Shown here in pieces: positions 750 through 64,000 of a stretch of DNA of 64,000 nt. The notes under the pieces are model-generated. The model was not told the origin of the DNA. It made no database searches and worked only from the letters and a program-made list of their open reading frames with translations. The translations under genes and the position numbers were made by a program. Position 1 is the stretch's first letter; each line of letters begins with the position of its first letter. Origin of the DNA: Raillietiella orientalis (taxonomy: Eukaryota). The stretch spans positions 2,356,001-2,420,000 of the forward strand of contig JAYWIR010000014.1 of assembly GCA_036172245.1 (NCBI GenBank). Reading direction: 5' to 3'.

Positions 750-1900
750 AGGCTCGGGAACAAAGGTGATTTTGATTTTCCAATGGCACATGAGGAATCT
801 GGAAAGATCGCACGCAGCCCAGAGAAACAAAACAAAACAAAACAAAACAACGCTCCTGGAAACCAAACCTAGAGGATTGTTACGTCTTGTATTGTTACTG
901 AACTCGTATTGTTGCGTCACCAGCCCACTCTGATTCGTTCCCGATCCCGCGGGTTGTTTCAAAAGAGGTCCAGGGGATTCGTGCACATTCACGAGAAAAA
1001 CAACAACCAGGTGGTTCCCGGTTTCACGAGTGTGTAGGTGTTTGTTTCGGTCGTTCCTCGCGTGTCGTTCCCCACGTGTTCGGTTTGCAAATTCCCAAGC
1101 AGCGCGGTTTTTCAGACCGTTTTCGCAGCAGTGCTCGTCCTGTAGCTCTCCTCTCTGCAGCCTGGTTTCGGTAGATTTCGTGAATACAGCGTCCACATCA
1201 GGAGGAGAGAGAGCAGGATGCCACTCATCCCCGCTTCGTATGCCTACGGGTACTACCCTTTCCTTTGACGCTTCGTTACTTCTGACAGGCCACAAATGTT
1301 CGTTTCCTTCCAAAGAAGCGAAGAGCCCGAAGTGCGATTTATTGTCGTTAATTCCATAATAAGATCCTCTTTCATCTAATTACAGAAGAGTAATTTGCTC
1401 TTCCCGTTTTAGCATATGAATCGGTGGATGATGGAATTCCGAAATGAGTGACTGCAGTTCCGCTTCAGTGCACAGAAGCCATCAGGATCGGGGAATAACC
1501 CGTGCGTTTATACGAAAAGGTTGCATGGCTCCGTCTTCGGCGCCGTTGCATTCATATGACTCCAGGAATAAGAAGAATGATGCGAGCACCTGATGCCAAC
1601 GCGTTTAGCAACCGCAATGGCTTCAGCAATTCAGTTCTAAGGCGCCGGATCGTGAACGTTTTCATAACGATTTGGCCAGGAGGAAGCTCAGATTTGCGAA
1701 CTGTTGCTATCCAAAGAGGATGCTTCAGCTTGCTTTTTCTGAAAACTCGAGGGTTTCTTCTGATGCGCACCTTCTTCCTAGCTCCACGAACGTATTTGTA
1801 TGTGTCCAGAGTAATTTTCCCCATCACTTTGTCTCGCTTCGACATGGCAACGAGGAACGAAAAGCATCATTTATTTTTGCTCTGCAAGTCTTGTATAATT
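750..1900 (-). pseudogene. Decayed rhabdovirus-like glycoprotein (G) EVE
   Basis: Across frameshifts: LFPDPDGFCALKRNC, VGIRSGDEW (cf. VSV G GVRLPSGVW), EHCCENGL, and a C-terminal hydrophobic stretch VVLFCFVLFLWAAC. No introns. Confidence 0.45.
826..851. repeat. (AAAAC)n microsatellite
   Basis: About five tandem AAAAC units read directly. Confidence 0.85.
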
Positions 1901-2139
1901 TTGCGAAAAATGTTTACTCGAGAAAATGAGGCGAAAAGGAAGGAAGGAAAGGTTCGGAAGGAAGGATGGAGGAAATCTGCTGATTTCTGCAGCAGCATCG
2001 AAAGAAAGTCTCGATTCAAAATCAGCCCGAGCTGCTTCAATGAAGCTCTTGATCCAGCGTAGCGGCAATCAGTTTTCACGGTTCGAAATCTCACGACTTC
2101 AAAACTGTTATCTAGAAGAAAATTTATTCACATGATGGT

Positions 2140-3340
2140 ATTTAACACTGTTCAGCGAATTTGACCCTAGCAACCAGAGTGAAACTCTGACGTTCGTTAA
2201 GCCGCCTGCTTCGAGACCGCCAAGCGGTGAGACGTGGAAGCTCTCCGAAACCTTCACTGGAAACGCACGGCGTTACTTGCGGGAGACACCGTCGGCGCGG
2301 CGTGCTACCTCTGAATTCTCTTGAGGGACATTGGGCTGGGCTCTGGGCCCCACAAATACAGCTCACCGGGCTTCACGTCTTTGGTTTCTGAGACAAACGG
2401 CTCAAGCGTTCTCCAAACGAAAAACGCGAGGAACCTCTTCGTCAACGCTTCCCGATGGATGCCTTACTGCTCTCGCGCACTTTAGTTCACTGAGACTTCC
2501 CATGGCTTAGTGCAAGTACGCCTTCGGTACGACTCAGTCCCGACACGGTGACGCATTGCACTCGCCAGTTCACGAGAAGGTCCCAGGCCGCGCAGCGCGA
2601 CCTCTACATTGCCTGCCGAGTTCAAAAAACCTGGGATGTGCAGAATACTTTGAGAGGCAAAGGGTGAATCCGTCCCGTTAGGCACTCATGGGAAAAAAAT
2701 CAAGTGCAGATCGATGGAGATCGGAATGGCCTGGCTGCGAAGGTCGATCATCTGATAGATCCCAGCTCTCTATTAGAGAATCCTCCAAGGTCGAACTTGG
2801 CTGGATCTTCGAAGTCGAGGACGGGCACAGTTGGCCACGACGACTGCCGGAACTTCATCTTTAGAGAGAACGGACGCACCCTCAACGTCGAACTCCTTGA
2901 AACAGCCTCCAGACTCGTCTGCAGGCTGCTTTGGGCTATGGGCTCTTCTCCGTTCGATCGCCGTTACTAGGCAGCTCCCGATTGGTTCCTTTTCCTCTGC
3001 TTAATAATCCAGTGGGCACTCCCTCCTGGACCAAGCGGGGTGTTGAACAAGAATAAGGAATAGTAGAGCGAAGAGCATGAGGTGGAACACCCGCCAGAAA
3101 CTTCGACAGCCACCATTCCGTACGTAGGCGGCAACATGGGAGACGGACGCATTCGGAGAGTCCCAGCTCCCATTGGATGAGCCATATCCTCCAGTTCGCG
3201 CCGGCATAGGGCGGGGGAGGAGGGTGGGGAGGGAGCTGGCGTACCGACTGGCGTGAACTCGCTCCCACTGCAAACGCAAACGCAAGCGTCGGCCACCAGC
3301 AGGACGGAGAGTGCGGCTGGCATCCTTGCTCCTCTCATTC
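2140..3340 (-). pseudogene. Second decayed G-like EVE, upstream of the first on the minus strand
   Basis: Signal-peptide-like MPAALSVLLVADACVCVCS; GGCSTSCSSLYY resembles RGCFTSCKSSL at 18.3 kb and the G motif C..TTC..WY; later DESGGCFKEF. Heavily frameshifted. Confidence 0.35.
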
Positions 3341-3419
3341 GAAGAGACGTCTATAGCGCTCGTGCTGCTCCATTCCAAGGACGCGAACGGGTCTCTCACA
3401 TCGGGTCTCATCGGGAGCG

Positions 3420-3654
3420 ACGGATGACGCCGGGGAGTTTAACCAATGCAAATAAACATGTAGACACAAGGGGTGGGGTCGGAAAGGTCGCCGCCATGGG
3501 AGTTGCAAGGGGAAGGGGGACTGGAGCTGTGGAAATACAGGAGGAAAGGAATGATACAATTTGTAAATAAAGTAATTGGAGGAAGAAGTATGATAAGGAG
3601 TCGGTTGTCATCTAATTCCGGGGGTTCTCCTTCGTGGTCCCTGCAGCAACTTGG
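3420..3654 (-). mobile_element. 3' end of an older LINE, interrupted by the 3655-5253 insertion and resuming at about 5254-5560
   Basis: Shares the 15-mer CACAAGGGGTGGGGT (3465-3479) with the LINE 3' end at 21020-21034; split by a target-site duplication. Confidence 0.5.
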
Positions 3655-5253
3655 TTTATCACCCGGTCACGTCAGGACGTTTATCAGAAAAAATGATAAA
3701 CATACATGTGGAGGGCCATAGACCCTACATTGTCCGAAAATGCTCGGAAACTGCCGAGTAACCGGCACGTAGGCCGGCGAGGTTCGCCTCGGCAGCGGAG
3801 GAGGAGGAGCAAACAAAAAGAAAAATAAAACAAGAAAATGTATGCAAAAAATTGGGAGGGCTAGAGAAGGGATCACTGGAATCTGGAGGGCGTCCTCTGC
3901 ATCCTTTCCAGGATGCCGGCAAGCTCCATCCGAGTATGCCCCAGGTGGGACCATCTTGTTGCCGTCCACAGGAAGCGCAGGGCGAAGCAGGTGGCGTCCC
4001 TATCACGCCGTCCTCCTCTCGCGTAGCTCCAGGCCGCCGCAATCCCACGTAGGCAGAAAAGAGCTGCCAGGGATGCGGCAGGCGAAAGGGCGTCGCGCAC
4101 GAAAAGGGGCCTCATCACGTCCCTGGGATTGTCCGTCGGTGCACCAAGGACGGTTGCGAAATGCAACCACAGGGGCCGAAGGGCAACACAAGTCTACAAG
4201 AAGATGAGGGTGGGGATTCCCGTTCCCCGCACCTGCAGCAGTTGGAATTCACAGCCCCCCGGGTCCAGTGAGACCGGCGGGCAGCGTTGCACGGGTGGTC
4301 CCAGTGCAACAGCAGAAGTGCCGACTCCTGCCACTTCAGGGGGACGGTCCGGTCTTCTTCAGCGCTGGGGGCCACTCGAGGTCTTCCTGTAGGATTCCCA
4401 GCAACTCACCCCAGTTCCATAGTTCCTTCGGTGGGGCACTTGGGTTCGCAGAGTCCTTGAGCTGGCCCGTGGTCTAGCCACCTAATCCACTTTGCTCTTC
4501 CACCGAACTCTCATCAGACCTCCCATTTGGCCGGCTGGTTACTGCCCAATTGCTCCCTGTGGGAGATCAGTGCCGCGGCTAGGGAGGTTCTTCGCACCCA
4601 CTCACACGCGGTGGCCTGCACGATGACGTCCTGCAGCGTGCAGTTGTTGTAGAAGGAGTGCAGCAGTCACTGCCGTGTCTTCGTTGTTCTTGGCCCATGT
4701 GCGAACAGTTTCCTGCAACCAGGCACTGCCGTTCGCAGGCCTGCAGGAGACGCAGTTGTTGGTCCTGGTCAGCTTGGCCATCCGCCGGATCTCCAGTCCG
4801 CAGCTGGACAAATTGCCGCCGCGCCAGGAACGAAGACAGTCCCGCGTAGTCGGTGGCTCGATTGACCAGGTATCGTGCGGATTCGCAACAGTTCGTGCTC
4901 CAAAGATTCTCCACGAGGGCAAGAGTCCTCCACTGGAGCTACCACTCCAGGCGTTCCAGCTTCCGGAGACGGAGGCTCCCGTCGCGACGCGGAGCGCACA
5001 AGTACTTCAGGCGGACTCGGGGCCTCCTTGTGCCCCAGAGGGCAGTTCTGAGGAGGTTCCTCGTCCGCCTTTTATGTTACTCGGTGAGGAACAAACAAAA
5101 AGCGGGGAGCAGAGGAAGGAGGCCACGAACATCTTCCACACCGCGACCCGTTCCTGCAAGAGAAGCTCTTTATTCTGGAACGGGTCGAATATGCCGACTC
5201 TGCCTTCTGGAGGCAGCTGGGCCACTCCGCCGGAGAATGGTCCCCAGCAGCTT
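3655..5253 (-). mobile_element. 5'-truncated L1/Tx1-type LINE with 13-bp TSD
   Basis: ERVAVWKMF..., CAPRRDG, PLKWQESALLLLHW, CCRCGERES zinc-finger-like motif, structured 3' UTR. TSD TGCAGCAACTTGG 3642-3654 / TGCAGCAGCTTGG 5254-5266 (1 mismatch). Confidence 0.85.
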
Positions 5254-7496: not shown

Positions 7497-7890
7497 ACTC
7501 CACCCGGATACGCCTGGACGTTTTTTCAAACTCTTCCATGGTCAATACAATACGTGGTACAAGGCCCCACTAACGGTTAACATTTCGCCGGACCTGACGG
7601 GACACCGTACGCAGTCCAGCGTGACTCTCCTCGTTAGTGGAAAGGGAAGGGAGAAAAAACAAAAAAAATAAAAATAAAACAATAACCAGAAAAAAAAATT
7701 TATTGGAGGGAGGGGAAGGGATCACTAACCACTGGGAGGAAAGTCCATCCTTCGCAGGATGCCCTCGAAGTCCTCCTTTAATTTACCCAGCTGGGGCCAT
7801 CTGGCAGCTCTCACTATGAAGCGAACAGCATACGGGATGACGTCCCTCTCGTTGCGAACATCGTCGTGGGCATCACTCCAAGCCGCCACG
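7497..7890 (-). mobile_element. Short LINE 3' fragment
   Basis: VAAW...RGTSS...WPQLG-type ORF2 end, TGATCCC, T-rich UTR, terminal hairpin CCAGGCGTATCCGGGTG. Confidence 0.75.
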
Positions 7891-7929: not shown

Positions 7930-9360
7930 GCACGCGCGTCCACGTAACTAGCCTTCGAGGATGCACGCCCCCCCTTCTTCTCCTTCTCCCCTTGCTTTTT
8001 GGTTGCCCTGCTCCCGGGAAAGCGGATGGAGGACCTCCTAAGGAAAGCCTTTGGGAGTACAGGGATGTCCCGAGTCCGCTTGAAGGACTTGTGCGCTCCA
8101 CGTCGGGACGTTGGACTGGGTCTCCCGACTCTGGAGCGAATGGAGAGACAGCTCCAGTGGACAGCAGTAGCCCCACTGGCAAAGAATTGGAGCACCCATT
8201 GGTGCACACGAGCACGCCTGCTGGTCAAGAGAGCATCCAACCTCGTCTTTCTTGTCGCGGTGCCGAGACCGCGTCCAGAGATGCAGATTGATGTTGCGGC
8301 AGCTCACTGCTCCGACAAGGGAGGGCAGCTGGATCCACTACTGCTCCGTGAACGGAGGACTTGGCTGTAGGAAAACGTTCGCGCGTGGGCGAAGATCCAG
8401 GAGCCGAGACCGATGCTATCGCGATGCTTGCGCTGCTTATCTCACAGCGGGTACTCTCTCCAAGTGCATCCCAGAAGGAGTGCATGCGCAGAGCAAACAT
8501 CCCTTGCCGCGGCGCTGCCCTCCTTGATGGAACAGATCGGCAGCAGTCTTCCGGTAATATATATGGCTGGCCGCGTGCAAACCGGGTGGAAGAAGAAAAG
8601 AGTTAGGAGCGCGGACCACGGGTCGGCTGACGGATGCTGCGACCCCAGGTGCCCACCTAAAGGACTTCTTGCGCTGGATTGAGCTGCTGGGACATTCCTA
8701 GGGATGACCCCGAGTGGTCCCCAAGTGCTGAAAAACTCGCTCATCCTCCCTCTCAGGTGGCGGGAGTCGGCGACCCCGGCGTTGTACTGAGGCTTGCAAG
8801 ACCCACCGAGATCACTGGACACGGGGGGGAGAGGGATTACCTCGAACTGCAGCAAGTGTGGGGAACGAAAGTTCCACCTCCTGCACCTGCTTGAGGATTG
8901 TGCTGCCCTCCGGATCATGTGGGAACGCTTTGCCGCGACCTCAGCTTCCCCCGAAGGCAATCCCAGAGGTGTTTTGAGAATTGACACTCTTCGTAAGAGA
9001 TGCTCTTACGCCCGCCGCATCCCCCGCAGCTCTCTGCTGCCTTCGTGGGATCATGGCTGCCTGGAGCACTGTTGAAGGAAGCGGCAACGATAGGGATGCC
9101 ATACAGTTTGCAATCCGTTTCTTGAGGATGGCGACGAGATGGCCCCATCTGGGGAATATGCAGTCCGAACTTGCCGGCATCCTTAGAAGGATGCAGAAAA
9201 CGCCCCATAGCAGACAGTGATCGCTTACCCCCCCCCCCCCCCGCCAGAGTGCTTTCTCTACTTATTTATTTTTCTATTTTGTTTGCTTTTTGTTTGCCCC
9301 CCTCCTTTCTATTGTCGAGATGATCGTCACCGGTCTGAGCATCGGCAACCCGACAGGCCC
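7930..9360 (+). mobile_element. LINE ORF2 3' fragment
   Basis: RVRLKDLCAPRRDVGLGLPTLERMERQLQW; CSKCGERKFHLLHLLEDCAALR (CxxC..H..C); LCCLRGIMAAW...WPHLG; stop at 9220. Confidence 0.85.
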
Positions 9361-9495
9361 TTCGACGAAACGTGATAGAAGCGACAGTTCCACCACTACG
9401 CTGCACTGACGTGCTTTTTTGTGGCTCCTCGAGCGCGATTCTTTTTCCGTCTTCTATGTGTGTGTTGTGCTCGTATGCGTCTCTTCGAAAGTCCA

Positions 9496-10205
9496 TGGCG
9501 CTGACACAAGAGAGGATGGAGGCTGCAGCCTGCGACGGAGTTCCTACTTCGGTTGTTCTGCCAGCCTCTGATGGTTCTGTTTCGCCGCCGGCGAGAAGCT
9601 TTGCCGCCGTCGTCAAGGCGGCGACAGCAAACGGAGCACCGCCCGACGAAGCAGAGTTACAGGCATATGCAGCCCATAGCTACAAGCCTGCGCTCTGTTA
9701 CCAGGTCAGCGCCTCGGTCTCCGACGGGGTCGGAGAAAATTTATGGGACGAGCTCGAACGCGTCTGGATCCGGCAGGATGACCTCCTGGTTGTCATGCCT
9801 GTGAGCGCGCTTGGACACTCGGAGGTGCACTGTAAGCAAGCAGCCCTAGTCCAACACCTTCTCCGCACCCCGCTGAACTTCCGCGGGAAGGAGGTCGTCC
9901 CATCGGCCATGGACCAGTCGTTCGTGATCCAATTGTCCGCCATCCGGGTGGAAACTACCGACCTCATGCTCGTGAGTGCTCTGGGTGCATTCGCCACGGT
10001 GCACGCGCTGTGGAGAACAGAGAACCTTATTAAGAGAATCGCATCTCTCCACAGCGGACTTGCCATGGAGCAAGTCACCATGGCGGACCGGAGGCTATTA
10101 CCTTCTCAGCTCCAGGTGGGCGATGAGGTCGTTCACCTGAAATTTGCGGGTCAGCGACTAGCATGCGGCATTTGCGGCAAGGAGGGCCACCGTCCGTGGA
10201 AGTGA
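9496..10205 (+). mobile_element. LINE ORF1 (gag-like), truncated in its zinc knuckle
   Basis: Open frame MALTQERM...RSFAAVVKA...VSALGAFATV...FAGQRLACGICGKEGH; SFA.VV and G.Q..C..C...GH are typical of L1/Tx1 ORF1. Confidence 0.8.
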
Positions 10206-10396
10206 CCTTCTCGCAACTGCCGCTACTGCAAAACGCTTGGGGCGAGATTCTCGCATTACCTCCGGAGGAGGTGAAGTGGCCCCCAGCGTGTTGGAGCAGT
10301 GGCTCCCTTTCCATGAAGTGGCAGGAGATGGCTTTACTCGTTTTGCATTGGAGACTCCCCTGCAAAGCACGCCTCACCCACAGGACTCGTGGAAGT
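10206..10396 (+). mobile_element. LINE ORF2 fragment just upstream of the zinc finger
   Basis: WGEILALPPEEVKWPPACW...WQEMALLVLHW..ARLTH; homologous to 12840-12985 and 62741-62899. Confidence 0.8.
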
Positions 10397-12238
10397 TTTC
10401 ACCCGGTCACGCCGGGGCGTTTATTGATAAACACTTTACATTTGCGGTACTAGACCCCGCTACGGCCAATAGTTCATGGGACCTGCCAGGAAGCCGCTTC
10501 GCAGACCGGCTTGACTATCCTCGGCAGCGGAGGTAAAACAAATAGGGGGTAAAACAAAAAGAAAAATAAATGAAACATACAAAAAGAAACTATTTGGAGG
10601 GCCGAGAAGGGATCACTGCCCGCTGGAGGAAGAGACCATCCTTTCCAGGATGCCCTCGAGGTCCCTCGTCATAGCTCCCAGATGGGACCAGCCGATCGCG
10701 ATTCGCAGGTAGCGACCCGCGTGTACGATGGGGTCCCTATCGCTGCTTCCTCTGTTGGCTGCGCTCCACGCAGCCACAATCCCTCGGAGGCAGCAGAGCG
10801 CTGCCAGGGTTGAGGCTGGTGGCAGGGCGTCTCGCACGAAGAGGAGTCTCAGAACGTCTCTGGGGGTACTGCCGACCGGCATACGGAGGGTCGTAGCAAA
10901 ACGTTCCCACAAGGACCGGAGGGCAGCGCAGTCCACTAACAGATGGGGGAGGGATTCCTTCTCCCCGCACACTGCACAGTTCTGTCCCACGTTCCCGAAC
11001 GTCCAGTGGTGGCGGCGCGCGTTGCAAGGAAGACCCCAGTGCAACAACAGCAGCGCCGTTTCCTGCCACTTGAGAGGGAGGGTGGATGGGTTTCTGAATA
11101 ACGGAGACCACTTTAGGTCATCCACCGGGATGCCAGGCAGCTCGCCCATCTCTGTATTCCTCGCGGGAGAACGCTTGGGGTCGCGGCGTCTGCCAGTTAC
11201 CTCATGGTCCACCCACTTAAATCCTTCTCCTTGCCCGCTATCCAGCAGGTGACTTGCCACCTCGGCTTCCGGCTGTTTTGAAGCGCCCTTCTTAGGAAGG
11301 GCAGCGCGGTGGCCAGTGGGGTCGTCTCCGCCCATGTGCTTCTGGCGGGACACTCGATCATGTTCCGCAGCGTGCAGCGGGTGTAGATGCCGGGACGCAG
11401 GCGGCTGCAGGATTCTCCACTGAGCTCGTTTAACTTTGCTCACGTTCCAACTGTTTCTTTCAGCCATGCGCTGGAGTTGGCGGGGCAGCAGGCCATCCAC
11501 CTGTTCTCCTTTGCCAGGGTGGCCATGCGTCCCAGGAGAAGGCCGCATCTTCTTATTTTCCGGCCGGGGCACAGAAGAAAAGACGCGAGTCCTTCAGTCC
11601 CGGACATACGTCTGGCGAGAAGGCGGGCCGGAACGCACCAAGGGGTGCTCCACATCTTCGCCGCGATGGCTAGAGTACGCCACCGCAACTGTGTTTCCAC
11701 GCGCTCCAGCGTCAGGACGCTAAGACCTCCGTCCCGACGTGGAGCGCACAAATCTTCCAGAGGCACACGAGGCCTCCCGCCGCCCCACAGGGCGATACAC
11801 AGGAGGTCCTTCGTTCTCTTTTTCATTTCACAGGGTACGGGGCAAACAAAAAGCAGGGGCCGAAGGAGGGGGGCCGCAAACGCGTTCCACACCGCGGCCC
11901 GTTCCGGCAAGTGAAACTTGCCTTCTAGGAACGGGCCGATCGCCGACTCCACTTTCTGGAGACGACCTGACCAGGCTTCTGACTGGCAGAAGTCCCCCAA
12001 CGGAACGCCAAGGTACTTCAAGTACCTCTCCGTGGGGATCCCCAGGAGGATCCAATCAGGTCATCCTGCCCACGTTGCACCAACCGCAACCAGCGACGAC
12101 TTGGTCCTGTTCACCCGTAGTCCTGTCCCGCGGCTCAGCAAGTCGAAGAAATCCTCGACTGCCGAAGCCGGGGTGGACATGGGCAGCAGGAGCAGAAGAT
12201 CGTCAGCATACGCCGACACGGCCGGCGTACCTGGGCAC
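10397..12238 (-). mobile_element. 5'-truncated LINE from RT core to 3' end
   Basis: YADD at 12199-12210, KYLGVPL, CAPRRDGGL, CAVCGEKESLPHLLVDC, stop at 10613, structured UTR, AATAAA plus hairpin. Confidence 0.9.
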
Positions 12239-12239
12239 A

Positions 12240-13610
12240 TGCGTTCCACGCAGGGACGGTGGGCTTGGTCTCCTGACGTTGGAGCGCATGGAGCGACAGC
12301 TCCAATTTAGAAAACTTGCCCTTGTGGCAAAGTATTGGACAGCACCCTGGTGTGCGCCGATAAGACTCCTCGCCCACAGGGCAACCGGCTGCCACGGATT
12401 GACCTCAATCCTGGTAGCCAACGACCTTAGCCTGAACCGTTGTGGGTTTCAGCTACGCGATCTGGTTGCCCTGGTGAGGGAGAATCCGTGGATCTATTGC
12501 ATCCCCGCGGACTGGACTACCTGGCTACAGGAGTCCGTTTCCGTGTGGGCGAAAATCAACGGCTCCAGCGATGAGGACTTCTCCTGCCTCTGTAGAGGCA
12601 GGTACGCTGGTCAGCCACTGCAGGAGATCGTTTGCAACCCACGAAAACTTCTGTGGGCTTCCTTCACCCCCCTTGCCCCCGTGCTGCCCTCCCTCAGGGA
12701 AGTTAGGGACAGCCAACAGGAGGCATCGTGGGAAGTGTCCTGCCTCATCGGAGGCAGGAAAAAACAGTTGAAGGCGTGGACGTCTCGGGAACTAGCGGAC
12801 GCTAGTACACCCTCTGTCCCGCCGAATGGACTTATACGCTGGGGCGCGCTGCTCGACGTACCTCCTGAGGAGGTGAAGTGGCTCCCAGCGGCTTGGGATA
12901 ACGGCACCCTTCCCCTGCAGTGGCAGGAGACGGCGTTGCTTCTGCTCCATTGGGGACTTTCAAGCAGAGCGCGCCTGTCTCACTGGACATCGGGGATTGC
13001 GGATGCCCTTTGTGCACGGTGTGGAGAGAAGGAGACCTTCCCCCACCTTCTTGTGGACTGCATCGCCCTCCATTCCTCTGGGATCGTCTTGCTAGGATCC
13101 TGAACATTGGCCGGAGGTACACCCAGGGACATTTGCCGGAGACTGTTCTCGCGTACCTCCTTGCCCCCGGCGGCGTCATTAGCAGTGCTGTACTTCATCC
13201 GCGGAATCGTGGCGGCATGGAATGCATCCAGAAGACGCAGGAATGGCAGGGATGCCATCCACTGGACGCGAATTTTCGTGCGAAACATCTCCAGGTAGCC
13301 CCACCTGGGCGCAAACAGGACTCAGCTCGCTAGGTTCAGGATCCTAAACAGGATCTAGAGGACCAATCCACGCGCAGTGTGATCCCTTTCCGCCCTCCCT
13401 ACTCCCAGATCTTTGTGCCCTCCCTACGTTTCACTTTGGTTTGTTTTTTTGTTCCTTTATTCCTCCACCCGCGCGTTGGATGGACCTCGCCGGTTTTTGC
13501 ACCGGCAGCTAGCTTTGTTGTGGAGTGGTAAACCCTTGGGTTCACCACAAGAAAATAGAATGCACTTTTATTTTATATAAATAAATGCCCCGGCATATCC
13601 AGGTGATAAA
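12240..13610 (+). mobile_element. LINE ORF2 3' half plus 3' UTR
   Basis: CVPRRDGGLGLLTLERMERQLQ...CARCGEKETFPHLLVDC; TGATCCC, T-rich UTR, AATAAA, CCCCGGCATATCCAGGTG. Confidence 0.9.
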
Positions 13611-13649
13611 CTGCAAAATGCTCGGTCATTCCATCAAGGAGTGCGCCGA

Positions 13650-16600
13650 ACTGAAGCGCTAACGGCAGGCGAGTAATCGCCTCCAATTGACGCCGTGCTC
13701 CCTGAAAACTTACCCCGCCTTGCCGGGAAAGAAATCGGGCGCGAATGACGCTGCTGCAGCGAGTGGCAGCCCCGCAAAAGAGGGCACGTTGCTTCAGGGA
13801 AGGAACAATCCCGGAAAGCCGCGCATAAGGGGAAGATGCCACGCCGCCCTGGGGGCAAACAGTCCTGCGCGAAGCAGCCAACGGGTTAACACTCAAAAAA
13901 GGCTGCTGAACCTTCAGCATCCATTCCCGCATCGAGCGGAAGCAGGGAAAATGAGCGCGGAGACCCCCGGAACTGCCACTGAGCGGCCGTGCCTCCCTCA
14001 GTCCGGGGAAAGCACGCCGTCCACGGTGAAACCGCTGGCAGCGAAGGCTGCAACGCATCGCGCGATGGCGGAAATACCTGCAAGTTCGCCCGCACCAGCG
14101 AAGGAGCAGTGCAGCAGGCAGAGGTGGCGGAGCCGTCTCTCGCCGCGATTGCGAAAAATGAGCTGTTAGCTACTGTCCAGAAGGCGCGGGAGGCTCTGGC
14201 CTCCCAGGATGGAGTCGAAGAGGACAGTGACGCGGGCTGGACTCTGGTGGCCAGGAAACCTAGAAAGGGGAAGAAGGTGGACCCTTCTCACTTCCCCATC
14301 CTGAAGGTAGGCGGAAGGAAGAAGCCTAGCGCGCCGAAGAAGGCGCAAATCAAAGTTTGCACTCCGACTACGTGCGCTGTCGCTGTCGCTTCGCGCGAGA
14401 GGGCTGCTGCAGAAACCAAAGCGCCGGGAGCTGCGTCGGCGACTGCGGCGATCCCTGCACAGGCTGGGCAAGCTTCCACCTCCCGGCACAACAAGAGACA
14501 GGCGAAACTCCAGTCTCGCACGCGGCATTCCGACTTCGAGGTGGAGTCCGACTGCAAACCAAAGGAGCGCGGATCCCGGGGAAACCCTGGAGCACTCCAG
14601 GCTAAAGTTGCCGGAAAGAGCCTGTTGCCGGAAGCGGTTCCAACCCTTCCTCGGAGCCCGAGGCGATGATTCTCGGCTCCCAGGACTCAGCTGCGTGCGG
14701 CGTGGTGGAGAACGGGAGCGGTTCTGTTTCCCAATCTGCAGTGTCAGCTGGCGGTACTCGCCAGCTGACACCTCGCCGGACGAGGCGAGGAGCACGCCGC
14801 CGCAGCAGTGATGCGTGGACTCGCGTCCGCTCGTCGCGTCAGCGTGGCCTGTTGGAACGTCAACGGGCTGTGCGACGCCGACAAGAGGCGGTAGCCAACG
14901 CCCTTTGCGCGTTCGATCTGATGCTGCTGCAGGAGATACACCGAACAGCAGGTAGCTGATCTGGAAGAGCGCGCAGGCGGGAAGCTACACTGGCGGCAAG
15001 GCTCCGCGCTCACATGCGGAGTCGCGTTCCTCGTCCGGGGCAGGGTGGCGGGGGCGGTGTGGAGTGTCCGTTTCGACGTGGGAGGTCGAGTGAGAGAACT
15101 TGTTCTCAAGTGGTCCGAATCGATCGACCTGGTCGTTACGAACATCTACGAGCCGAGCGGCGGCCGCCACTACGCCGAGAGAAATTATCACCGCGATCAA
15201 AAGGCTCAAGAGGCGGAAGGCACCAGGGGAGGACGACCTGCCCGCAGAGTTTTTTCAAAGCTTCGCGGAAGAGATAACCCCCTTGGTGCTTAGGTTGACA
15301 CAGCTGATCCGGGAAGAAGGCGATGTTCCCGCCTCGTTCCGGTCAGCTAGGATGAGGCTCCTTTCTAAGGGAAGAGACCTCCGTAAGTTAAACAACTCGC
15401 GTCCGATCACATTCGTGAACACGGACGCCAAGTTGGTCGCAAAACTGGGCTGCGCGGCTCGGACAGGTGGCCGAATCCGTAATTAGCCCGGAGCAGACTT
15501 ACGCTGTTCCCAGGCGAGCTATGGAGGCCAACCTGTTCTTCGCCAGCACATGGTTTCATGTGCAAAGCGAAGTAAAAGAGCGGAAGGGAACTGTCGGCAA
15601 CCACAATTTGGGGGAGACCGCTGGTCAGGGTGGAGACAGCCGGCCGGGCAAGGGAGCCCTAGCGATCACAGTCAATCTCCATAAAGTATTCGACTGCGTG
15701 GACCAGGGGTTTCTGCTGGAGCTCCTGGATCGCATGGGCTCGCCACCCTCCCTACTGACCTACCTGCGCTCTTGCTGGCGCAGTGCGATAATAAACGTTT
15801 TCTTCAGCAGTCAGAATGTATACGGCCTGCCGGTGCACCGCGGGATAAGGCAGGGCGATAGCCTGAGTCCCCTGCTCTTTAGCACCTGCTTCGAGTTGGT
15901 GCTTAGAGCGTACAGGGCGACTTTGGCTGCCTTGCCGAGCTCGTGCCCCAGCACGCCTGCTGTAGCAGCGTACGCCGACGATCTTCTGCTCCTGCTCCCC
16001 ATGTCCGCTCCGGCAGAGGCAGTCGAGGATTTCTTCGATCTGCTAAGCCGCGGGACTGGACTGCGGGTGAACAAGGCAAAGTCGTCGGTGGTGGCGATTG
16101 ATGAGACGGAGAGGTGTGTCGCCAATGGCAGAGCATTTCTGCAGGCGCGTACCTTCTCCCGATGCCCGAACATCCGGCGCCTGGAGGAGTACAAGGCCAG
16201 GGCCGAGCGCTAGGTCTGGAAGTCTGGAGCGGCTTGTCTGCTCGACGACCATGGCCAAGAATGCTCGGCTGCAGCCGACGTGCATCGCGTAGTCAGGCTC
16301 CTTGTAGGGATGCCGGCTTGGGCATCCTGATGCTGGAAAGGATCGGACTGTTAGTGCAGTTTCGCATGCTGGCACTTTATGCCCAGCTTTGGACGACTCC
16401 ATGGTGTGCTCCGGCACGGCTGCTGCTGCGGAGCTGCACGGGTGGCGACAGACTGCTTTCGTTGCTCCCGCATACGGAGCGCGCCACGAGAGGATCCGGC
16501 TCCCCGCTGAGGCAGCTCGCCTCGATCCTGGAAGCGCATTCGTGGATCTCCTGCCGGCCAACGAACTTTAACACCTGGCAGCAGGAAGCCTTATCTTCCT

Positions 16601-17613
16601 GGGCAAGGCAACAGGACGTGTCCCGTTTGGAACTCCGTTGCTTGAACCTTTCTCCATACTGTCCAGTAGAGGAGGTGTTGCAGAACCAGGACAAGTGGAC
16701 TCGCCTGGCCGCTACGCCCCTCGCCGAAGCGCTGTCTGCCCTAAGGGCACGAGAAGACAGTTGCCTACTGGCAAGGTGGGAGGTCGCCTGCGCTATCGCA
16801 GGGGAACCCGACCTCTGGGTGGCTGGAGGACGAGCGAGCTGGCAGACGCTGCCACGCCTCGCCATCGTGCCAAGGGACTTCTTCGGAGGAGCGAACTCTG
16901 AGGGTGCCCTTCGAAGAACTTGTGGTCCTCCCCTCCTGCTTGGACACGACTATGTTCCCCCTTCGTTGGAAACAGGACGCGTTTATGCTGGTACATTGGG
17001 GTTTCTATTGCAACCAGCGCGCACACCTAGTTTCCAGGGGAGTCGCGTCCCCGAACTGTGAAAGGTGCGGAGCGGTGGAATCGCTCCCGCACCTGCTATT
17101 CGACTATGGTGCCCTGCAGGGACTGTGGCGGAGGCTGTCTTCAACGCTCCTGCATCCGGGGGACATCGCACTGGATTTGATGCGCCGCTTCTTCACGCGT
17201 GGCGGCCTATCGCTTGGCGCGGTCATCTCAATCTGTTGCATCTGCACCATTGTCAGAGCCCGCCACGTATTGCAGCTGCGAGTGGCCCCGGCAGCGGTCA
17301 CCGTCGGTGCAGCCTGCAATCTGAGTATGGCCGCCGGGTGGCCACACATCAACGACTAAGTGAGGACGGAGACATCCGGCATTCAACGCCGGTTCTGAGA
17401 AAAGGAAGGGTCGAAGCTACAGACCCCTGTCCCTACCCTCCTGCCCCTCTATGTTTATTTATTTATTGTCCTCTCCCTCCCGTTCCGAACTCTCAGTATG
17501 CCCGACCTGCGTGTCGGGAAACCCTCCCCCTTAACTTCTGCTCTCCTTGCCTGGGAACGATGTTCCCAGATGATTACATTTTTAATAAACGACCCGGCGC
17601 AACTGGGTAACAA
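13650..17613 (+). mobile_element. Longest LINE copy: ORF1 C-terminus, AP-endonuclease, RT, zinc finger, 3' UTR; internally deleted and frameshifted
   Basis: GWTLVARK (ORF1 tail); WNVNG, LLQEIH, GVAFL, NIYEP (APE); KAPGED..EFF, RPITFVNTDAK, RGIRQGDSLSPLLF, YADD 15971-15982; CERCGAVESLPHLL; AATAAA plus hairpin about 17584-17609. Confidence 0.92.
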
Positions 17614-17614
17614 A

Positions 17615-18000
17615 CCACTGGATTTGCGCGTTTATTCCTGAAAGAGACGCCCAGGCGCCGCAACCGGATGAGAAGAGGGTGTACGTCAGACGGCGACGAG
17701 GAGCACTGCGCGTCGGGCGCAGTGGCGCGTGGACGCCGCTGCTTTGGACCCCTCGTCCAACTCATTTGTTGGGTGGGAACCAGCGAAGATTTTGGCCGGG
17801 CAGCCCGGTGCAGGGGCACCGCCCAGGCGCTCACACGCGTGGCCTTCGACGAGTACTTGCGTTCAGGTGCCCCCCTGCCCCTCTTTCCTTCCCCCCGCGC
17901 GCGGAGCACAACGCAGCGCTGCGAGGAGACATTTACCAACGCGCGTCTTTCCGCTGCGACGACTAGAGATTAGGAGAAGCTGCATTCCGTCGGACGCGTA
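17615..18000 (+). mobile_element. LINE endonuclease C-terminus/linker remnant
   Basis: LDLRVY, TSD(G), WRVDAAALD...WEPAK resemble the L1 pattern LD..Y / SDH / W.LN..LL / WE..K. Confidence 0.4.
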
Positions 18001-18029
18001 GGACGAAACGTCCGGGGGGGGGGGAGGTG

Positions 18030-18500
18030 CGGCGGCAGAATCAGGCCAAAAGCCAGGAAACACTGGGATTTGCGCGGATCCACCATCTTGCAGAACTGAT
18101 TTATGGCCGCGGAGGTAAACAAATCCACTGCCTGTGTGACCAGGTTTCATCCGATGTAAATCAGCGCGTTCAAATGATACAGAAGGAGACGCTACTTCCA
18201 CGACAGGATCCCTTGGAAGTTGCAATATGTTTGCCTTCGGAGGGAAACCCCATTTTTCCTCGTGCATCCCTTACGGGAAAGAGAGGGTTTGACATAACGA
18301 TGGCAATAAAACACGAGGCCCTCACACAGTGACGACTTGCATGACGTGAAGCACCCTCTGTAAATTTTACGGCAAACCATTTCCTTCGTTCCGCGCCCTC
18401 TGTAGGATGTCTGAGGACAAAAATCGGATTCAGCGAATAAAAAAAAAAAAACGAGTGCCAAACGAGAAAAGACACGGATTAAACGAACATACATTGGATT
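18030..18500 (-). pseudogene. Rhabdovirus-like G EVE, N-terminal part
   Basis: Signal-like MYVRLIRVFSRLALVFFFLFAESD, then CP, MVCRKIYRGCFTSC, VKPSLS..C, GFPP..YCNF, HTGSGFV, in the same order as VSV G (CP; MC..TTC; TPS..C; GFPPQSCGY; YTGEWVD). Confidence 0.6.
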
Positions 18501-18749
18501 ACTTGCTCTGGAAGCAACAGAAGCACTTCCCAAGGTAAACATCTGTTCTCCTGCATCTCGCCTAGGAAAAATATCCAAGACTATGCAAATCTGCGTAAAT
18601 CTTTGCTCAAACGAGCGGAACGAGCTCGGGAGAACAGCGAGTGGGGGACTCCGGAATTTTTTTGGAAACACGAGGAAACTTGGCGACCCTCTTTGCACTT
18701 CCTATTAGTCCGAGTGTGCCGCGTCATTTTTCTTTTTTTTCTCCAGGAA

Positions 18750-19260
18750 CCGCGGCCATCTGGAGTGCCCTTCGCGATGCGTCCCACACGTTGAGCCGCT
18801 GCGGATGACGTCACAAGGAAATTGCGAAGGAGTAGCCAAAACCAGGATGAAAAAGGCCTCAAATAATTGACTCGAGAGTCAGCAAACACCCCTGGAGCGA
18901 GCAGCCTCCTCAGTGTGATGCCGGGGACGATGGCGAGATGCTGGTTTCCTGCGATTCAAGAAGTCCGGATCCGATCCTTCCTCGGTCATCTAATCATCCA
19001 TCTTCCGAGGCCGATTCCATCGTTTGGTTCTGCTCGTCTCTGTTCCCATCCGAAGCCTCGTTTATCTGGAACATTTCACAAAACGCTCGCCGCTTCAGCG
19101 CCACTCCCCGCGCACCCCTGCCCGCTTCCGGAGTGTTCCTGGTTCCAGAGGGAAGGGAAGCCTCTTGTGGCATCGCTCATGGACAATGAGCAATCCTACA
19201 CCTCCAGGCTGAAGGGACACCTCAGAAATCCACGGCCACCGCCTACTACCAGTCTGCATT
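18750..19260 (-). pseudogene. Rhabdovirus-like G EVE, C-terminal part
   Basis: FPSLWNQEHSGSGQG (cf. LSYLAPKNPGTGP), W...EPNDGI (cf. GPNGV), hydrophobic AFFILVLA; frameshifted. Confidence 0.35.
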
Positions 19261-19754
19261 CGTATCCACTAGCCATGGAATTCCCGTCCTCCTCTTTTGT
19301 CCCTTCCCTCTTCGCCGGGATTCGCTGTGCGAGGAGCTGCTTCTCCCGCCACCGAACTTTGCGGAACGTGGACTGAGGTGCTTCTCGTGATGGCTCGATA
19401 CTCCTGGAGGTCGTCCTGATGCACCTCCGGCAGTCTCCAAGGACACTGCTCCAGCGCTGCTAGCGGCCAGACCTTTTCGCCCGTCACTGCGATCCCCCTC
19501 CTCCTCCAGCCCTGTTTTGCGCGCCAGAGCTGGAACTCGGCTGCCCTCCATTCGTAGGCAGGAGTGCCACAGGAAAAAAGGATGGAAAGGTAGCGCGCTT
19601 CGACCTCCCGCGTGGTCAGGAACGGAGCGAAGTGCTTACCCTGCAGGAAAGGCTGAAGTGGAACCATCTGCCGGAGATGCGGAGAGGTAAGCCGGTGATC
19701 CCGTGCAATCTCCCCTCCTATTTATCTTTTTTATTTTTTAATTAACGGTTTTCT

Positions 19755-19820
19755 CCCTTGACTGACTGAGGCCTCTGTTCGTGGAACCAGGCGTTGCGGG
19801 TTCGAATCCTGCACGCGAGG
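19755..19820 (+). pseudogene. tRNA-like remnant (tRNA pseudogene or SINE head)
   Basis: T-arm GCGGG-TTCGAAT-CCTGC 19796-19812 (B box) preceded by AGGCCTCTG...CAG resembling tRNA-Arg; D-arm and acceptor stem degenerate. Confidence 0.5.
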
Positions 19821-19899
19821 AAGGACTGACACCGGGAACAGGGAGAGATGTGTCATGGGTTTTGAGTCTCCCTCCCTCTTCCTTCAGGATGACGCTGGT

Positions 19900-20960
19900 T
19901 GGCCTGAAGGCTTCAGATGTGGCCACCGGTGGAAGCCAGAAACCCCGAGTATCGCCGTTTACTGACCGACACCGGAAGCTGACCCTCCGTGGTCTTTCCA
20001 GGAATCAGGGAGTGCCGGTTCCCTTCGGGGTTTCCCTCCGGTTGTGGAAATGGAGCCGTTCATTTCGTGGAGCTGGTGGATCTCCAGAGTGTGAAGGAGC
20101 GCGCTGCTCCCTTTGGGGAGCGCTCTCCAGAGAAATCGGGAAGCGTCCTTTTGGTGTTCTCTTCAGAGGAGGAGGAGGAGACAGGGAGAGGATCACTTGC
20201 AGAGTCCCTCCTGAGAATAAATTCCAGGAGCGGGAGGATGCCTCCCGAGAGAACAGAAAGAAGAGGATCACTTCGGGTTTCCCTTCAGAGACAACCAGGG
20301 AGAAGGTTTCTTTAGGGGATTCCTTCCCAAGAGTAAGAAGAATGGACTCCCCTTCTCTGGAGCCTTTCTGGATTCACAGGGTGGTCCTTACTGCGTTGCC
20401 CCCTATAACTGGAAGAGTTGCTCCACGCACCTTCGGGTGGCGTGGACGGTGTTTAAGAGCTCCGTGACCCCCCCTCCTCCCTCTCCCTAGGGAGATCTGT
20501 TCTTCAGTGCTCCTTGAGAGCCAAAAGAAGGCTCCTCTGCCTCTGGACTCTCACAACTGTCTCAGCAGACTTGCCAATTCCATGGACTCCAAGAGCTCGG
20601 TCATCGCAGCATCGTCGCTCTCAAGTCGTGTGATCTCAATCTGGTCGTAACTGCTGCTCCGAGGCACTGCGCTAAACAGGGAAGCGAATCTTTTTTTTTG
20701 CCGCGTTAAGTCACAGCTGCTATCACCTTTGTGTCTGGAAGTCCTGGAGCGAGATGCTCTTGTGACGATTACGTATCAGGGCTGCTACTCTTAGCGTCTG
20801 TCGTGGACTGAAGTTACAAGATCAAGGAAAGGGAGCCTGTGATCATTAGAGGAAGAACCGACTGCATGCATCCTACGTCTTGAACCCGAATCGAATCTCC
20901 TGGTTATGGCCTCACCTTACTGCGCAAAAGCACTGACGGAAACCAGGGGAGCAGACCAGA
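19900..20960 (-). pseudogene. Mononegavirus-like nucleoprotein C-terminal remnant followed by Ser/Pro-rich (P-like?) decayed ORF
   Basis: HRLPFLDL (20818-20841) then HLAPGLPDTKVIAAV (20712-20756), parallel to HYHFPFL / HDLDTAQFPEIRLVAA at 55.4-55.6 kb and the N pattern PY/F..L...LAP..FP.L..A. Confidence 0.35.
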
Positions 20961-21004
20961 GTAGGGACGGTGCTCTCACAACTGGAATTCCATCGGACAA
21001 TACG

Positions 21005-22160
21005 ATTTTCCCCAAGTCCCACAAGGGGTGGGGTAAATTTATTTTTCCTTTTTAAACATTCATTCTACAATCACGTTCACACAATTCACAATCACTGTCT
21101 CACTTGGAAGTCCTTTCGGGTGGTCCAAAGTTCTACATTCAGGGTGGGTTTCTGGTTGTTGGGTCCCGGGCGTCGTCCTCAATCCTCTTCAGGATGTATC
21201 GGTACGTCCAGGCTTGGAGTTGTATACAATTCCTGATACCGATTTCCTTCTGGATCAATCCTTTCAGGATCTCCATCGGGGGTGCGGTTCTCCTGGCTTT
21301 CCTCATCTTCCACCACCGCACAAGTATGGCGGTGATGAAGAGAGCAATGGTCGTCCTTATCATTGGGTTGTAGCAGGGAACATTACCATTTCCCTGAAAC
21401 ATTCTGGCAAGTATTTCCATTGTGGAGCTGTTCATGAGTCCAACGATCCTTTTCAGGATCAGCCAGTCATGGAGCAATGTGGGACACGTCAAGATGTGGA
21501 GTCTTGTGTTGTGTCTCCACATGTCTTGCAGTCTTGATCATCCCGTCTTCTAGTGAAGTATTTTAATCTGGACCCGCTCAGAATTCTTCCATGATAAAAC
21601 ATCAGGAGGTTGTCCTGGGTGTCCGGCGGAAGGTCACTCCTCCAGAGCGTCGTGCCGATCGCTAACAGGTTGATCCTGTCACTCCCGTAGCGATCGGCTG
21701 CTTCTCGGAGGGCACTGGTGTCTTGATCTTGATCCTTTATCATTTTCCGGAGGTTCTGCTTCGTTACCTTGGACCACGTGAAGTCATTGTGGTTTATCCA
21801 CACTTCGCGTGTCCTGTGGGTGTATCGTCCTAACATCATCTCTATATACGGAAGTATACGAGTGTGATGTAGGTAACCTCCTCTTCTCCATTCCTGGATG
21901 CGTTGCAGGGTAACTCTGGGCCGCTGGTAGATCCAGCTTCTCGTGTCCGGGGGGACCGGAAGCATCCACGGGATCACGAACGTGTCTTGAAGACTGAGAT
22001 TCGGGCCAGAGATTACGGAATTTCTGAACGTGAAAAGTTCGCAGTCTCTGATGACCTCGCATCACTCAGATGAGTGCCTGACTAGATCTCGGGGGAGATA
22101 AGCCAGAGGAGTTAGCTTCTTCAGAAGAGACTTCAGATGTCCTCGAAACTCTTCCGTTTG
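21005..22160 (-). mobile_element. 3' fragment of a second, divergent L1/Tx1-like LINE family
   Basis: LWRSDLPPDTQDNLLMFYHGRIL...DCKTCGDTTQDSTSHL (zf-RVT-like), ILVRWWKMRK; AATAAA followed by hairpin CCCCACCCCTTGTGGGACTTGGGG. Confidence 0.75.
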
Positions 22161-52400: not shown

Positions 52401-53019
52401 CCATTTTGTATATTCTTCGATGATGAAGAAATATTTGAAAGTTACAGGGCCAGAACTTAATACACGATAATAAAACGAAATCCAAAACGGATGTTGGACG
52501 GATGTCTGTAGGTAATGGATTACCACAGAAATTGTATTTTATCTGGATCTATTGAAAGATGGTCCTTAAGACTTGCAGAATTGGTGTCGATTCGCTATTG
52601 CAATAACTGCTTCGATCCATACAAAAAGCGATTTTTTATCTTGAAAGTAACACACTATGGGAAATCCCGTAAAAGGGATTTCAAAATCATCGAAAATTCT
52701 TCCAGTCGTTTCAATTTAATGAGATCAATTTGTTGATTAGGATGCCCTAGATCTGGATGAGCGAGTTCTTCCGAATAGTTGCCATGAATCCCCAAAATGC
52801 ACTGATGAAGTACTACGCTACCTACAGCATGGATTTTGTCAGCTGAAGCTGATGAATCGAAAACTCTTCAGGTTGTCAGCTGACTTCTTTCATTTCCCAT
52901 TTTGGACACCCACACAAATTTGTCATGCAATCCTCGTGCCTCTTCCCAATGCACTGTGCGCCTATTTCTGGTCGCTGCTTACCTAATTTCATCAAACCCA
53001 GAGAACGATAATTTGACAT
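49444..53019 (-). pseudogene. Endogenous bunyavirus-like L protein (cap-snatching endonuclease plus RdRp core), many stops and frameshifts
   Basis: Colinear degenerate motifs: ATG 53019; LHDKF 52916-52930; HPDLG..IDLIK about 52720-52759; KQSRK..IRV about 50665-50703 (F); ADPRKCAP about 50449-50472 (A, DxxKW); SGQGI..TTS 49799-49813 (B); HSDQ 49692-49703 (C, HSDD); FTEALSL about 49537-49558 (E). Spacing fits an L protein. Confidence 0.7.
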
Positions 53020-53290
53020 GGTATTACACTAGCTTTAAGCAATAGCACGATCGACCAGGTATTTTAGTCCCCTCGAGGGTAAAGTTTAGAGAGAATTTCG
53101 GAATCCAAAGGAGGCATCTCGATTCTCGAACAGTAAGAAACCTAACTTTTCTCAGAAGCAGAGTTTAATTATTTACAAAGAGTTTGGTATCTCGCCGTAG
53201 GGCTGGGACTACTAAGAATAAACAAAGAAGCAAAAGAGCGGAAAAACGTTCATAGGAAAGAGCCTTTCTCAACTTATAGAAAGAGTCTGA

Positions 53291-62029: not shown

Positions 62030-64000
62030 ACATCAGTGCACGAGAGAAAGGGCGAGACGATCCTCCACCAATAAGAGGATAAGAGGTCTCCTTAGAAAAG
62101 CCCTGTGGGGCAATCGGAGGTCCCGCGTCCGGCTTAAAGACTTGTGCGCTCCAGGACGGGACGGTGGACTAGGCCTCCTGACGTTGGAGCACCCGGAGCG
62201 CCAACTCCAAATAACAAAACTCGCCCTTGTGGCGAGATACTGGACAGCTCCAGAGTGCACACCAACACGTCTTCTCGCCAATAGGGCAACCGGCTGCAAC
62301 GGATTGACTTCAATCCTTGTGGCTAACGACCGCAGCCTGAACCATTGTGGTTTTCAGCTGCGGGACTTGGCTGCCCTAGCGAGAGAAAACCTGGATCTCC
62401 TGCGTCCCGTGAACTGGACTACCTGGCTTAAGGAGTCAGCTTCCACGTGGGCTATGATCAACGGCTCCAGCAATGTGGACTTCTCCTGCCTCCATAGAAG
62501 CAGGTACGCTAGCCAGTCCCTGTAGGAGATCGTTTCCAACTCACGGAAACTTCTGTGGGCTTCATTTACTCCCCTTGCCCCCGTGCTGCCCTCCCTGAAG
62601 AACGCTAGGGACAGCCAAGAGGAGGTATCGTGGGAAGTCTCCTGCCTCATCAGAGGAGGACAAAACTTTTGAAGGCGTGGGCGTCTCGGGAACTAGTAGA
62701 CGCTGCAACCCCGAGTGTCCCAACTAAAGGACTTGCGCTCTGGGGCGAGCTACTCGGCATACCTCCGGAGGAGGTGAAGTGGCCCCCAGCATATTGGAAC
62801 AGTGGCACCCTCCCTTTAGATTGGCAGGAGATGGCGTTTCTAGTGCTGCATTAGGGACTTCTTTGCACAGCACGCCTCTCCCACTCGGCATTAGGGAGTT
62901 CCCACCCGGTCACGCCGGGGCGTTTATTAATAAACACAGTACATCTGCGGTTCTAGACCCCGCTACGGCCAATAGTTCATGGGACCTGCCAGGAAGCCGG
63001 TTCACAGGCCGACTTGACTCTCCTCGGCAGCGGAGGGGATAGGGGGTAAAACAAAAAGAAAAATAAATGAAATAAACAAACAGAAACTATTTGGAGGGCC
63101 GGGAAGGGATCACTGCCTGCTGGAGGAAGAGACCATCCTTTCCAGGATGCCCTCGAGGTCCCTCGTCATAGCTCCCAGATGGGACCAGCCGATCGCGATT
63201 CGCAGGTAGCGACCCGCGTGTACGATGGGGTCCCTATCGCTGCTTCCTCTGTTGGCTGCGCTCCATGCAGCCACAATCCCTCGGAGGCAGCAGAGCGCTG
63301 CCAGGGTTGAGGCTGGTGGCAGGGCGTCTCGCACGAAGAGGAGTCTCACAACGTCTCTGGGGGTACTGCCGACCGGCATCCGGAGGGTCGTAGCAAAATG
63401 TTCCCAAAAGGGCCGACATTAGGGAGTGTAGATGCCGATTGTGCAGGGTGCGGGGAATGGAAAAGCTTCCCCCACCTCATCATCAAGTGTGTCGCCCTCC
63501 GCCCAATGTGGAATCGACTGTCGTCGATTCTGGACATTCCGGTGGGCGACCCGAAGTTCATTTTCCGTCGCCTCCTGGTGTAGGACATCCTGCCAGCAGC
63601 CGCGTGTGTAGCAATTCTCTGCTGCATATGCGGAATCCTGGACAAGTGGACTGCGTTGAGGAGAGGCCGCAGAAGCCGGAATGCCATTCACTGGGCAGCC
63701 ATCTCCATGGAGAAGGCTTCCCGATGGCACCGGCTAAGGAAAATTCGACCTGCACTTGTCCGCAAAACTGGATGCAGAGGACTCCTCGCGGGGACTTGTG
63801 GTTCTTTCCTTCCCTATCCTCCCCGTAAAACATTGCACCCCCTTCGTGTTTTTGTTTTTGTTTTTTTTTCTGGCTTTCCCGCTCCCTTCGCCAGCGAAGA
63901 GGACCTCACCGGCCTGCGGTCCGGTAGACACAGGGGTTGCAAGACAGGCGGAACCACGTGATCTGCCTGAATGAACATAAAGACATTTATTACGAAATTT
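62030..64000 (+). mobile_element. LINE ORF2 3' half plus 3' UTR, interrupted by a nested antisense copy
   Basis: CAPGRDGGLGLLTLE...WQEMAFLVLH..ARLSHSALGS | VDADCAGCGEWKSFPHLIIKC; the frame rejoins across the insertion. Confidence 0.9.
62900..63413 (-). mobile_element. Nested 5'-truncated LINE with TSD
   Basis: Near-identical to 10400-10910; TSD CATTAGGGAGT 62889-62899 / 63417-63427. Confidence 0.92.

Follow-up and report, generated by a model that had tools for sequence, protein, structure and literature searches.

Antisense insertions of one LINE subfamily at the same ORF2 nucleotide of related LINEs in Raillietiella orientalis

Introduction

What brings near-identical copies of one LINE to the same position, and in the same orientation, in different LINEs? 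The question is raised by a stretch of 64,000 nucleotides from Raillietiella orientalis (GenBank assembly GCA_036172245.1, contig JAYWIR010000014.1, positions 2,356,001 to 2,420,000), hereafter the window, whose own coordinates are used throughout. An earlier note on this DNA had reported near-identical element 3' ends directly after the codons ARL(T/S)HxxxGS of two host LINEs, just ahead of a CxxC finger, and had proposed a LINE that targets its own relatives in antisense. The targets of the site-specific LINEs known so far are RNA genes, microsatellites, DNA transposons or LTR elements. A narrow full-text literature search found no published case of a LINE that homes to one set ORF2 position in its siblings; the poplar element Celine came near, but what is described of it concerns centromere targeting with unique TSDs and no fixed site. 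Here we analyze the junctions, the hosts and their surroundings, and weigh the processes that might account for them.

Results

Two junctions at one host nucleotide

Both junctions lie where the earlier note had placed them and could be mapped to single nucleotides, namely 10396/10397 (site 1) and 62899/62900 (site 2). The host codons at site 1 read KARLTHRTRGS and then meet the junction, and those at site 2 read TARLSHSALGS, the junction, and VDADCAGCG. In an ungapped host alignment the two junctions are the same host nucleotide (position b), which follows directly on the G-S codons of ARL(T/S)HxxxGS, four codons 5' of the CxxC finger in ORF2 of a related LINE. At both sites the host ORF is on the plus strand and the insert ORF, with its zf-RVT match, on the minus strand. 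Hence both copies of the inserted subfamily in the window (ins; 2/2) sit antisense at the homologous host nucleotide.

Site 2 has a transparent structure. The left part of the host LINE, H3, runs on the plus strand through its ORF2 up to b (62066..62899; the 5' limit is approximate, and there is no similarity to other LINEs further upstream). It is followed by ins2, a 5'-truncated copy on the minus strand (62900..63416) that corresponds to the last 517 bp of the element. The insert is flanked by a perfect TSD of 11 bp (11/11), the first copy of which, CATTAGGGAGT, occupies 62889..62899 and the second 63417..63427, both on the plus strand; thereafter the host resumes with its CxxC finger, and the right part of H3 (63428..64000, plus strand) continues through the finger, C-terminus and 3' UTR until it runs off the window end. 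The TSD, the 5' truncation and the intact 3' end are hallmarks of TPRT, and the clean TSD that the earlier note had recorded at 62.9 kb is thus borne out.

The insert at site 1, ins1 (10397..12238, minus strand), is likewise a 5'-truncated copy with an intact 3' end. It translates in frame from the YADD box of the RT through the CCHC finger of the ORF2 C-terminus (zf-RVT E=8e-5, below the gathering score), followed by a 219-nt 3' UTR with the terminal stem-loop motif at 10400-10419 and a 3-nt tail at 10397-10399. Its truncated 5' end is followed by another LINE and not by the rest of the host, so that no TSD is readable for ins1.

Over their common 517 bp ins1 and ins2 agree at 490 positions, differ at 23 and are set apart by one 6-bp indel, i.e. 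they have 95.5% identity across 513 aligned sites (94% by BLAST), and are young copies of one LINE subfamily; their 3' tails differ from each other. The insert and host families are relatives, with 46-54% amino acid identity in the ORF2 C-terminus. The host flanks of the two sites are far more diverged than the inserts they carry, with 123 of 159 positions identical (77.4%) vs 95.5% for the inserts (Fisher p=1.1e-10). This agrees with the comparison of host and insert divergence drawn in the earlier note, and sites 1 and 2 are therefore separate events, independent of each other.

Site 1 as part of a retrotransposed composite

The earlier note had treated site 1 as an insertion into a host LINE. 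The junction itself is real; the host, though, does not resume beyond the insert, and the host piece on the near side is only 156 nt long (H1, 10241..10396, plus strand). H1 was recognized by tblastn with ins, H2 and X peptides and by alignment as a fragment of a host-type LINE ORF2 that ends at b (...THRTRGS); it is 123/159 identical to H3 and 115/159 to H2. On its far side ins1 is separated by a single nucleotide from H2 (12240..13610, plus strand), a 5'-truncated host-type LINE with 75.5% identity to H3 over 1026 nt, so that the truncated 5' ends of ins1 (12238) and H2 (12240) stand head to head. H1 (+), ins1 (-) and H2 (+) together make up a 3.37-kb composite (10241-13610) with pieces from at least two LINE families, and the 3' end of H2 at 13610 is also the 3' end of the composite.

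This composite is bounded by a TSD of 15 bp, the left copy of which (10226..10240, plus strand) is identical at 13 of 15 positions to the right copy (13611..13625, plus strand), and which lies in the second CCHC knuckle of ORF1 of a further element, LINE X. Directly upstream of H1 the ORF1 of X reads CGICGKEGHRPWK, stop, PSRNCRYCKT; it resumes at 13611, where it reads CKMLGHSIKECAELKR, stop. Joining the two halves across the composite restores a CX2CX4HX4C knuckle. Given the TSD and the restored knuckle, 10241-13610 is therefore a single insertion into X. Accordingly, ins did not simply insert in place at site 1, which belongs to a composite that has itself undergone retrotransposition. The composite TSD and the head-to-head, cDNA-like junction show that the ins 3' end and its host flank were moved together, and the junction of H1 and ins1 probably arose at a different locus and came here on a read-through RNA. 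It is still counted as an event separate from that at site 2, because the hosts differ.

Several simpler dissections of this region were considered and rejected. H1 is not a duplicate of H2, with which it is only 115/159 identical; H2 is not a mosaic broken at b, as its alignment with H3 runs through that position without interruption; and 12073-12238 is not a separate X-like fragment, as it continues the ins1 reading frame through the YADD box. In a public run, X1 (see below), contigs run on past 12238 as a full element would, leaving a loose end there, from which we take the truncation of ins1 at 12238 to be local.

As to how such a composite might form, the simplest reading of its architecture appears to be a twin-priming-like event. 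An ins transcript extended by 156 nt or more of antisense host flank would have served as a second template during the insertion of an H2-type LINE into the ORF1 of X: the H2-type RNA would have been copied from one target strand, and the ins read-through transcript from the other, primed at a microhomology of 3-5 nt. In L1 twin priming, or 5' inversion, the classical criterion is that the inverted and direct segments derive from a single element RNA. The composite resembles products of L1 twin priming and 3' transduction in having one flanking TSD, an inverted 5' block and a direct 3' block that ends at the element 3' end; further likenesses are that two truncated, cDNA-like ends meet almost bluntly and that the inverted block carries sequence from downstream of the ins 3' end. 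It departs from classical twin priming in that ins1 and H2 belong to different families (46% amino acid identity) and overlap in their ORF2 coordinates, which means that they are not one RNA copied twice; nor do they come from the single RNA of the classical case. A further difference from the L1 events is that the transduced flank stops where it shares a microhomology with the target rather than at a second 3' end. The composite is of use in its own right, as the record of a retrotransposition in which cDNAs from two different LINE families were joined head to head.

LINE X has further features of its own. Its ORF1 starts at about 9339, its RT occupies 15419-16210 and its 3' end lies at 17614. 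In the first CCHC knuckle of its ORF1 an in-frame TGA (10203-10205) falls exactly at the expected last cysteine, directly after CGICGKEGHRPWK, and this copy of X is therefore dead. X (9310-17614) in turn appears to lie inside the 3' UTR of LINE Y, which occupies the plus strand at about 8019-9303 and whose last ~60 nt, with the terminal stem-loop motif of the family, follow X at 17615-17672 (segment 17615-17676). No TSD was found for X. The whole thus appears to be a three-level nest, in which Y contains X and X contains the composite.

A third junction in a public run

Logan contigs of the public run X1 were compared with the window; 235 of its pieces were placed on the window, 165 of these being less than 90% alike, and the results given here are drawn from 8 of 244 pieces, 6 of 213 loose ends and the seven joints listed. 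Among those seven joints, one contig leads from 10400, where ins has its 3' end, to the opposite strand at 10993, which is 2 nt from the uninterrupted, empty b-site that ins1 itself carries at about 10991. This contig has a depth of 2 and 54 nt on its shorter side, and it is placed at 80% likeness. Since the joint falls next to the b-site of ins1, the host there is therefore ins-like, a third host type. The X1 host would resemble ins more than H1 or H3, which in their final 60 nt match ins at only 39/60 and 41/60 positions, and the junction geometry is that of sites 1 and 2. Counting this contig with the two junctions in the window, the insert is antisense to its host in 3/3 cases. Two other joints among the seven listed, which link 13010 with 10326 and with 11002, we take for host-type copies without an interruption, i.e. 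empty sites.

Occupied and empty sites, and the question of chance

Recognizable homologues of the b-site number seven in the window: in the element at 3657, in Y at 8.7 kb, and in H1, ins1, H2, X and H3. Only the sites of H1 and H3 are occupied (2/7), and only these two read GGRAGT at the nick; the empty site of H2 reads GGGATT|GCG (12993-12998|12999). Five other LINE 3' ends, from sister families (at 3657, 178, 7501, 13610 and 17614), have other, unrelated flanks. The window contains 69 GGRAGT and 428 GGRAG motifs, and were the choice of site governed by the motif only, finding 2/2 copies at b would have a p of about 8e-4 (GGRAGT) to 2e-5 (GGRAG). The nick-site flanks of the sister families are also G-rich (...GG/AGT^T), and part of the site preference of ins may thus be a short generic motif. 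Moreover, 4/8 of the LINE 3' junctions examined lie inside other LINEs, and as such nesting is common in the window, a regional preference contributes as well.

In published practice, a retrotransposon has been called target-specific when more than 20% of its flanks fall in one target type (PMC4494074, Methods). Here the same target and the same nucleotide recur in both window copies (2/2) and in the one X1 joint, and the orientation is constant across all three (3/3 antisense).

The genomic setting and the shared 3' ends

The window is sharply divided in composition. The gene core (22301-53000) has 34% GC and holds exons of compact genes coding for BLTP3-like, RPS3A, ISWI-type SNF2/SLIDE and Vps55-like proteins; in sharp contrast, the repeat blocks with the LINE fragments have 57% GC (1-22300) and 52% GC (53001-64000). 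Within the latter, the GC-rich blocks at 1400-3656, 17677-22300 and 53000-62000 have long open frames on both strands, for which we found neither a Pfam match nor, by tblastx, any resemblance to the window LINEs. The LINE 3' ends at 3657 and 7501 adjoin such GC-rich sequence, and the flanks of the elements at 3657, 7501 and 178 have no similarity to the window LINEs.

All LINE families of the window end alike, with AATAAA, a short conserved GC stem-loop of 5 pairs and a mostly A-rich tail of 3-5 nt; there is no long poly(A). These shared ends lie at 174-220, 3654-3700, 7497-7540, 10397-10440, 13565-13610, 17569-17614 and 62900-62943. The sequence of the stem-loop is conserved across 8 ends, with a compensatory change in 0/5 pairs, and the flank beyond the 3' ends usually starts with C(C/T). 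A 3' end shared across families suggests stringent 3'-end recognition and possibly cross-mobilization between families.

Relatives and clade

A CX2CX7HX4C finger follows the RT in ins, H2, H3 and X; it is common also to L1-type LINEs and does not discriminate in favor of Tx1. The zf-RVT matches (E=8e-5 and 2e-4) are below the Pfam gathering score, the RT core scores alike against the R2Bm and human L1 ORF2p structures, and comparisons with the PDB and the Atlas did not resolve the clade of the window LINEs. Pfam detected no endonuclease domain, and no match to Exo_endo_phos, in any window LINE ORF (253 distinct ORFs scanned), and the window holds no full-length copy of ins, both copies being 5'-truncated; whatever specificity ins has is thus without a protein basis in the window. 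PF03372, an APE-type domain, is present in database proteins that are distantly related to the RT (25-30% identity).

A search with the RT at longer lengths returned 10 matches, one of them a close relative (P0001, JGI-sourced, 619 aa, on a 2870-bp contig) that is 66% identical to the RT of X and 64% identical to the post-RT region of ins1 and that ends before the b-site, so that LINEs of this kind also occur in a further public data set. A metagenome scan with the 20-nt 3'-end motif found 15 loci, all in GC-rich bacterial coding sequence and none a LINE, and scans of genome contigs and of viral contigs with a 23-nt motif found none in either. With the junction-spanning ORF, a protein search yielded one candidate at near lengths and 60 at longer lengths, none of them scored in either case, and a search of a representative library yielded one match, to an unrelated Ig-repeat protein.

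Discussion

The insertions of the ins subfamily occupy the same nucleotide of their hosts in the same orientation, arose in independent events and, at site 2, left a TSD. We consider it reasonably probable that they reflect a target-primed insertion of ins with a strong preference for one position in ORF2 of related LINE families, on the evidence of three junctions. From their geometry we infer the position of the nick and the logic of the strands: the host sense strand would be nicked right after GGRAGT, the codons for Gly-Ser four codons before the CxxC finger; the freed 3'-OH would prime cDNA synthesis on the 3' end of the ins RNA, with its short stem-loop and 3-4 nt tail; and a second nick 11 bp away would give rise to the 11-bp TSD. 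If the nicked strand is fixed, as we propose, every insertion would be antisense to its host, and the constant orientation would follow from this. Specificity might be supplied by an endonuclease or by annealing of a read-through RNA to the target, and in a compact, AT-rich genome the likely benefit would be a 'safe haven' present in many copies.

The second of these sources of specificity can be taken further, to a homing by RNA with no sequence-specific enzyme. Read-through transcripts from copies already at b would anneal, via their antisense-host 3' flank, to nicked or broken hosts, and base pairing would copy both position and orientation. The site-1 composite implies such transcripts, with 156 nt or more of antisense host flank in them, and co-transcribed target sequence is said to strengthen the specific integration of R2-type elements (PMC4494074). 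We nevertheless think this unlikely, as the host flanks of the three junctions are only 65-77% identical near b, which is poor for annealing across host lineages, as the first event in each lineage would still need another cause, and as the clean 11-bp TSD fits ordinary staggered nicking. Plain coincidence is in our estimation decidedly unlikely. In that case two copies would have met the same motif through a nick preference that is short and generic (G-rich ...AGT^/GG^T), combined with a regional bias for GC-rich LINE nests, as the similar short flank patterns of sister families, the 4/8 junctions inside other LINEs and the small number of window copies (n=2) would allow; the 69 GGRAGT and 428 GGRAG sites available elsewhere (p about 8e-4 to 2e-5 for 2/2 at b) argue against it, however, as does a third junction at the same position and in the same orientation in X1.

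A single ancestral unit of host and insert, spread by segmental duplication or co-mobilization, with the inserts subsequently homogenized by gene conversion or the hosts converted by other copies, seems to us extremely improbable. Site 1 does prove that the ins 3' end and its host flank can move together. Yet the divergence of the host flanks is 5-fold that of the inserts (36/159 vs 23/513), no host whose ORF2 holds an antisense insert of 0.5-1.8 kb can go on evolving as an active lineage, site 2 has a perfect TSD of its own with the host continuing on either side, the tails of ins1 and ins2 differ, and the X1 junction lies in a third, ins-like host. We therefore return to site-preferring insertion as the preferred explanation. 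The proposal of a LINE that targets its own relatives in antisense is accordingly supported in part, namely for the same nucleotide and orientation, independent events and relatives at 46-54% amino acid identity; a true target specificity would rest on three cases, in one of which, site 1, the junction was probably made elsewhere.

Targeting of this kind has parallels among LINEs of the Tx1 clade that insert into transposons, such as Tx1 itself in Tx1D (a piggyBac element), Tx1-Mar in Mariner-N4_AMi, Tx1-9_AMi in Harbinger, and Tx1-8_Crp and Tx1-4_AMi in LTR retrotransposons (PMC4494074). Like these, as they are described there, ins is a non-LTR retrotransposon found at a fixed position in a multicopy transposon, in a fixed orientation and with a TSD. 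It is unlike them in that its target is the coding sequence for the ORF2 C-terminus of its own relatives, in antisense; the specificity of ins is moreover a matter of three junctions as against a genome-wide census for the Tx1 LINEs, and the likeness drawn here is one of targeting. The LINEs specific for rDNA and snRNA genes, R1, R2, Keno and Utopia (PMC4640811), offer a second parallel: as far as that account goes, ins shares with them the logic of the multicopy 'safe haven', the precise junctions and possibly the help of a co-transcribed target. Their targets are host RNA genes, whereas that of ins is another mobile element; and R2 and Utopia have a restriction-like endonuclease (PMC4640811), whereas no endonuclease of any kind is seen in the ORFs of the window LINEs.

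Beyond insertion itself, ins might be thought to home always antisense into the ORF2 of its siblings as a safe landing site that also kills competitors, with convergent transcription feeding the small-RNA silencing of rivals. We regard this as very improbable, and a role of the insertions in disabling relatives or in creating antisense or dsRNA templates, as the earlier note had it, is speculation. If true, it would amount to a warfare of TE versus TE by site-specific retrotransposition, which would also build the LINE nests of the window.

The occupied GGRAGT site and the empty GGGATT paralogue, which occur side by side at this locus, would then provide a natural example of a retargeted nick site for cleavage assays. 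If a LINE does home to one fixed codon of its relatives, the target classes of site-specific retrotransposons would be extended by a new one, and such homing would help explain the growth of LINE-only nests beside compact gene regions.
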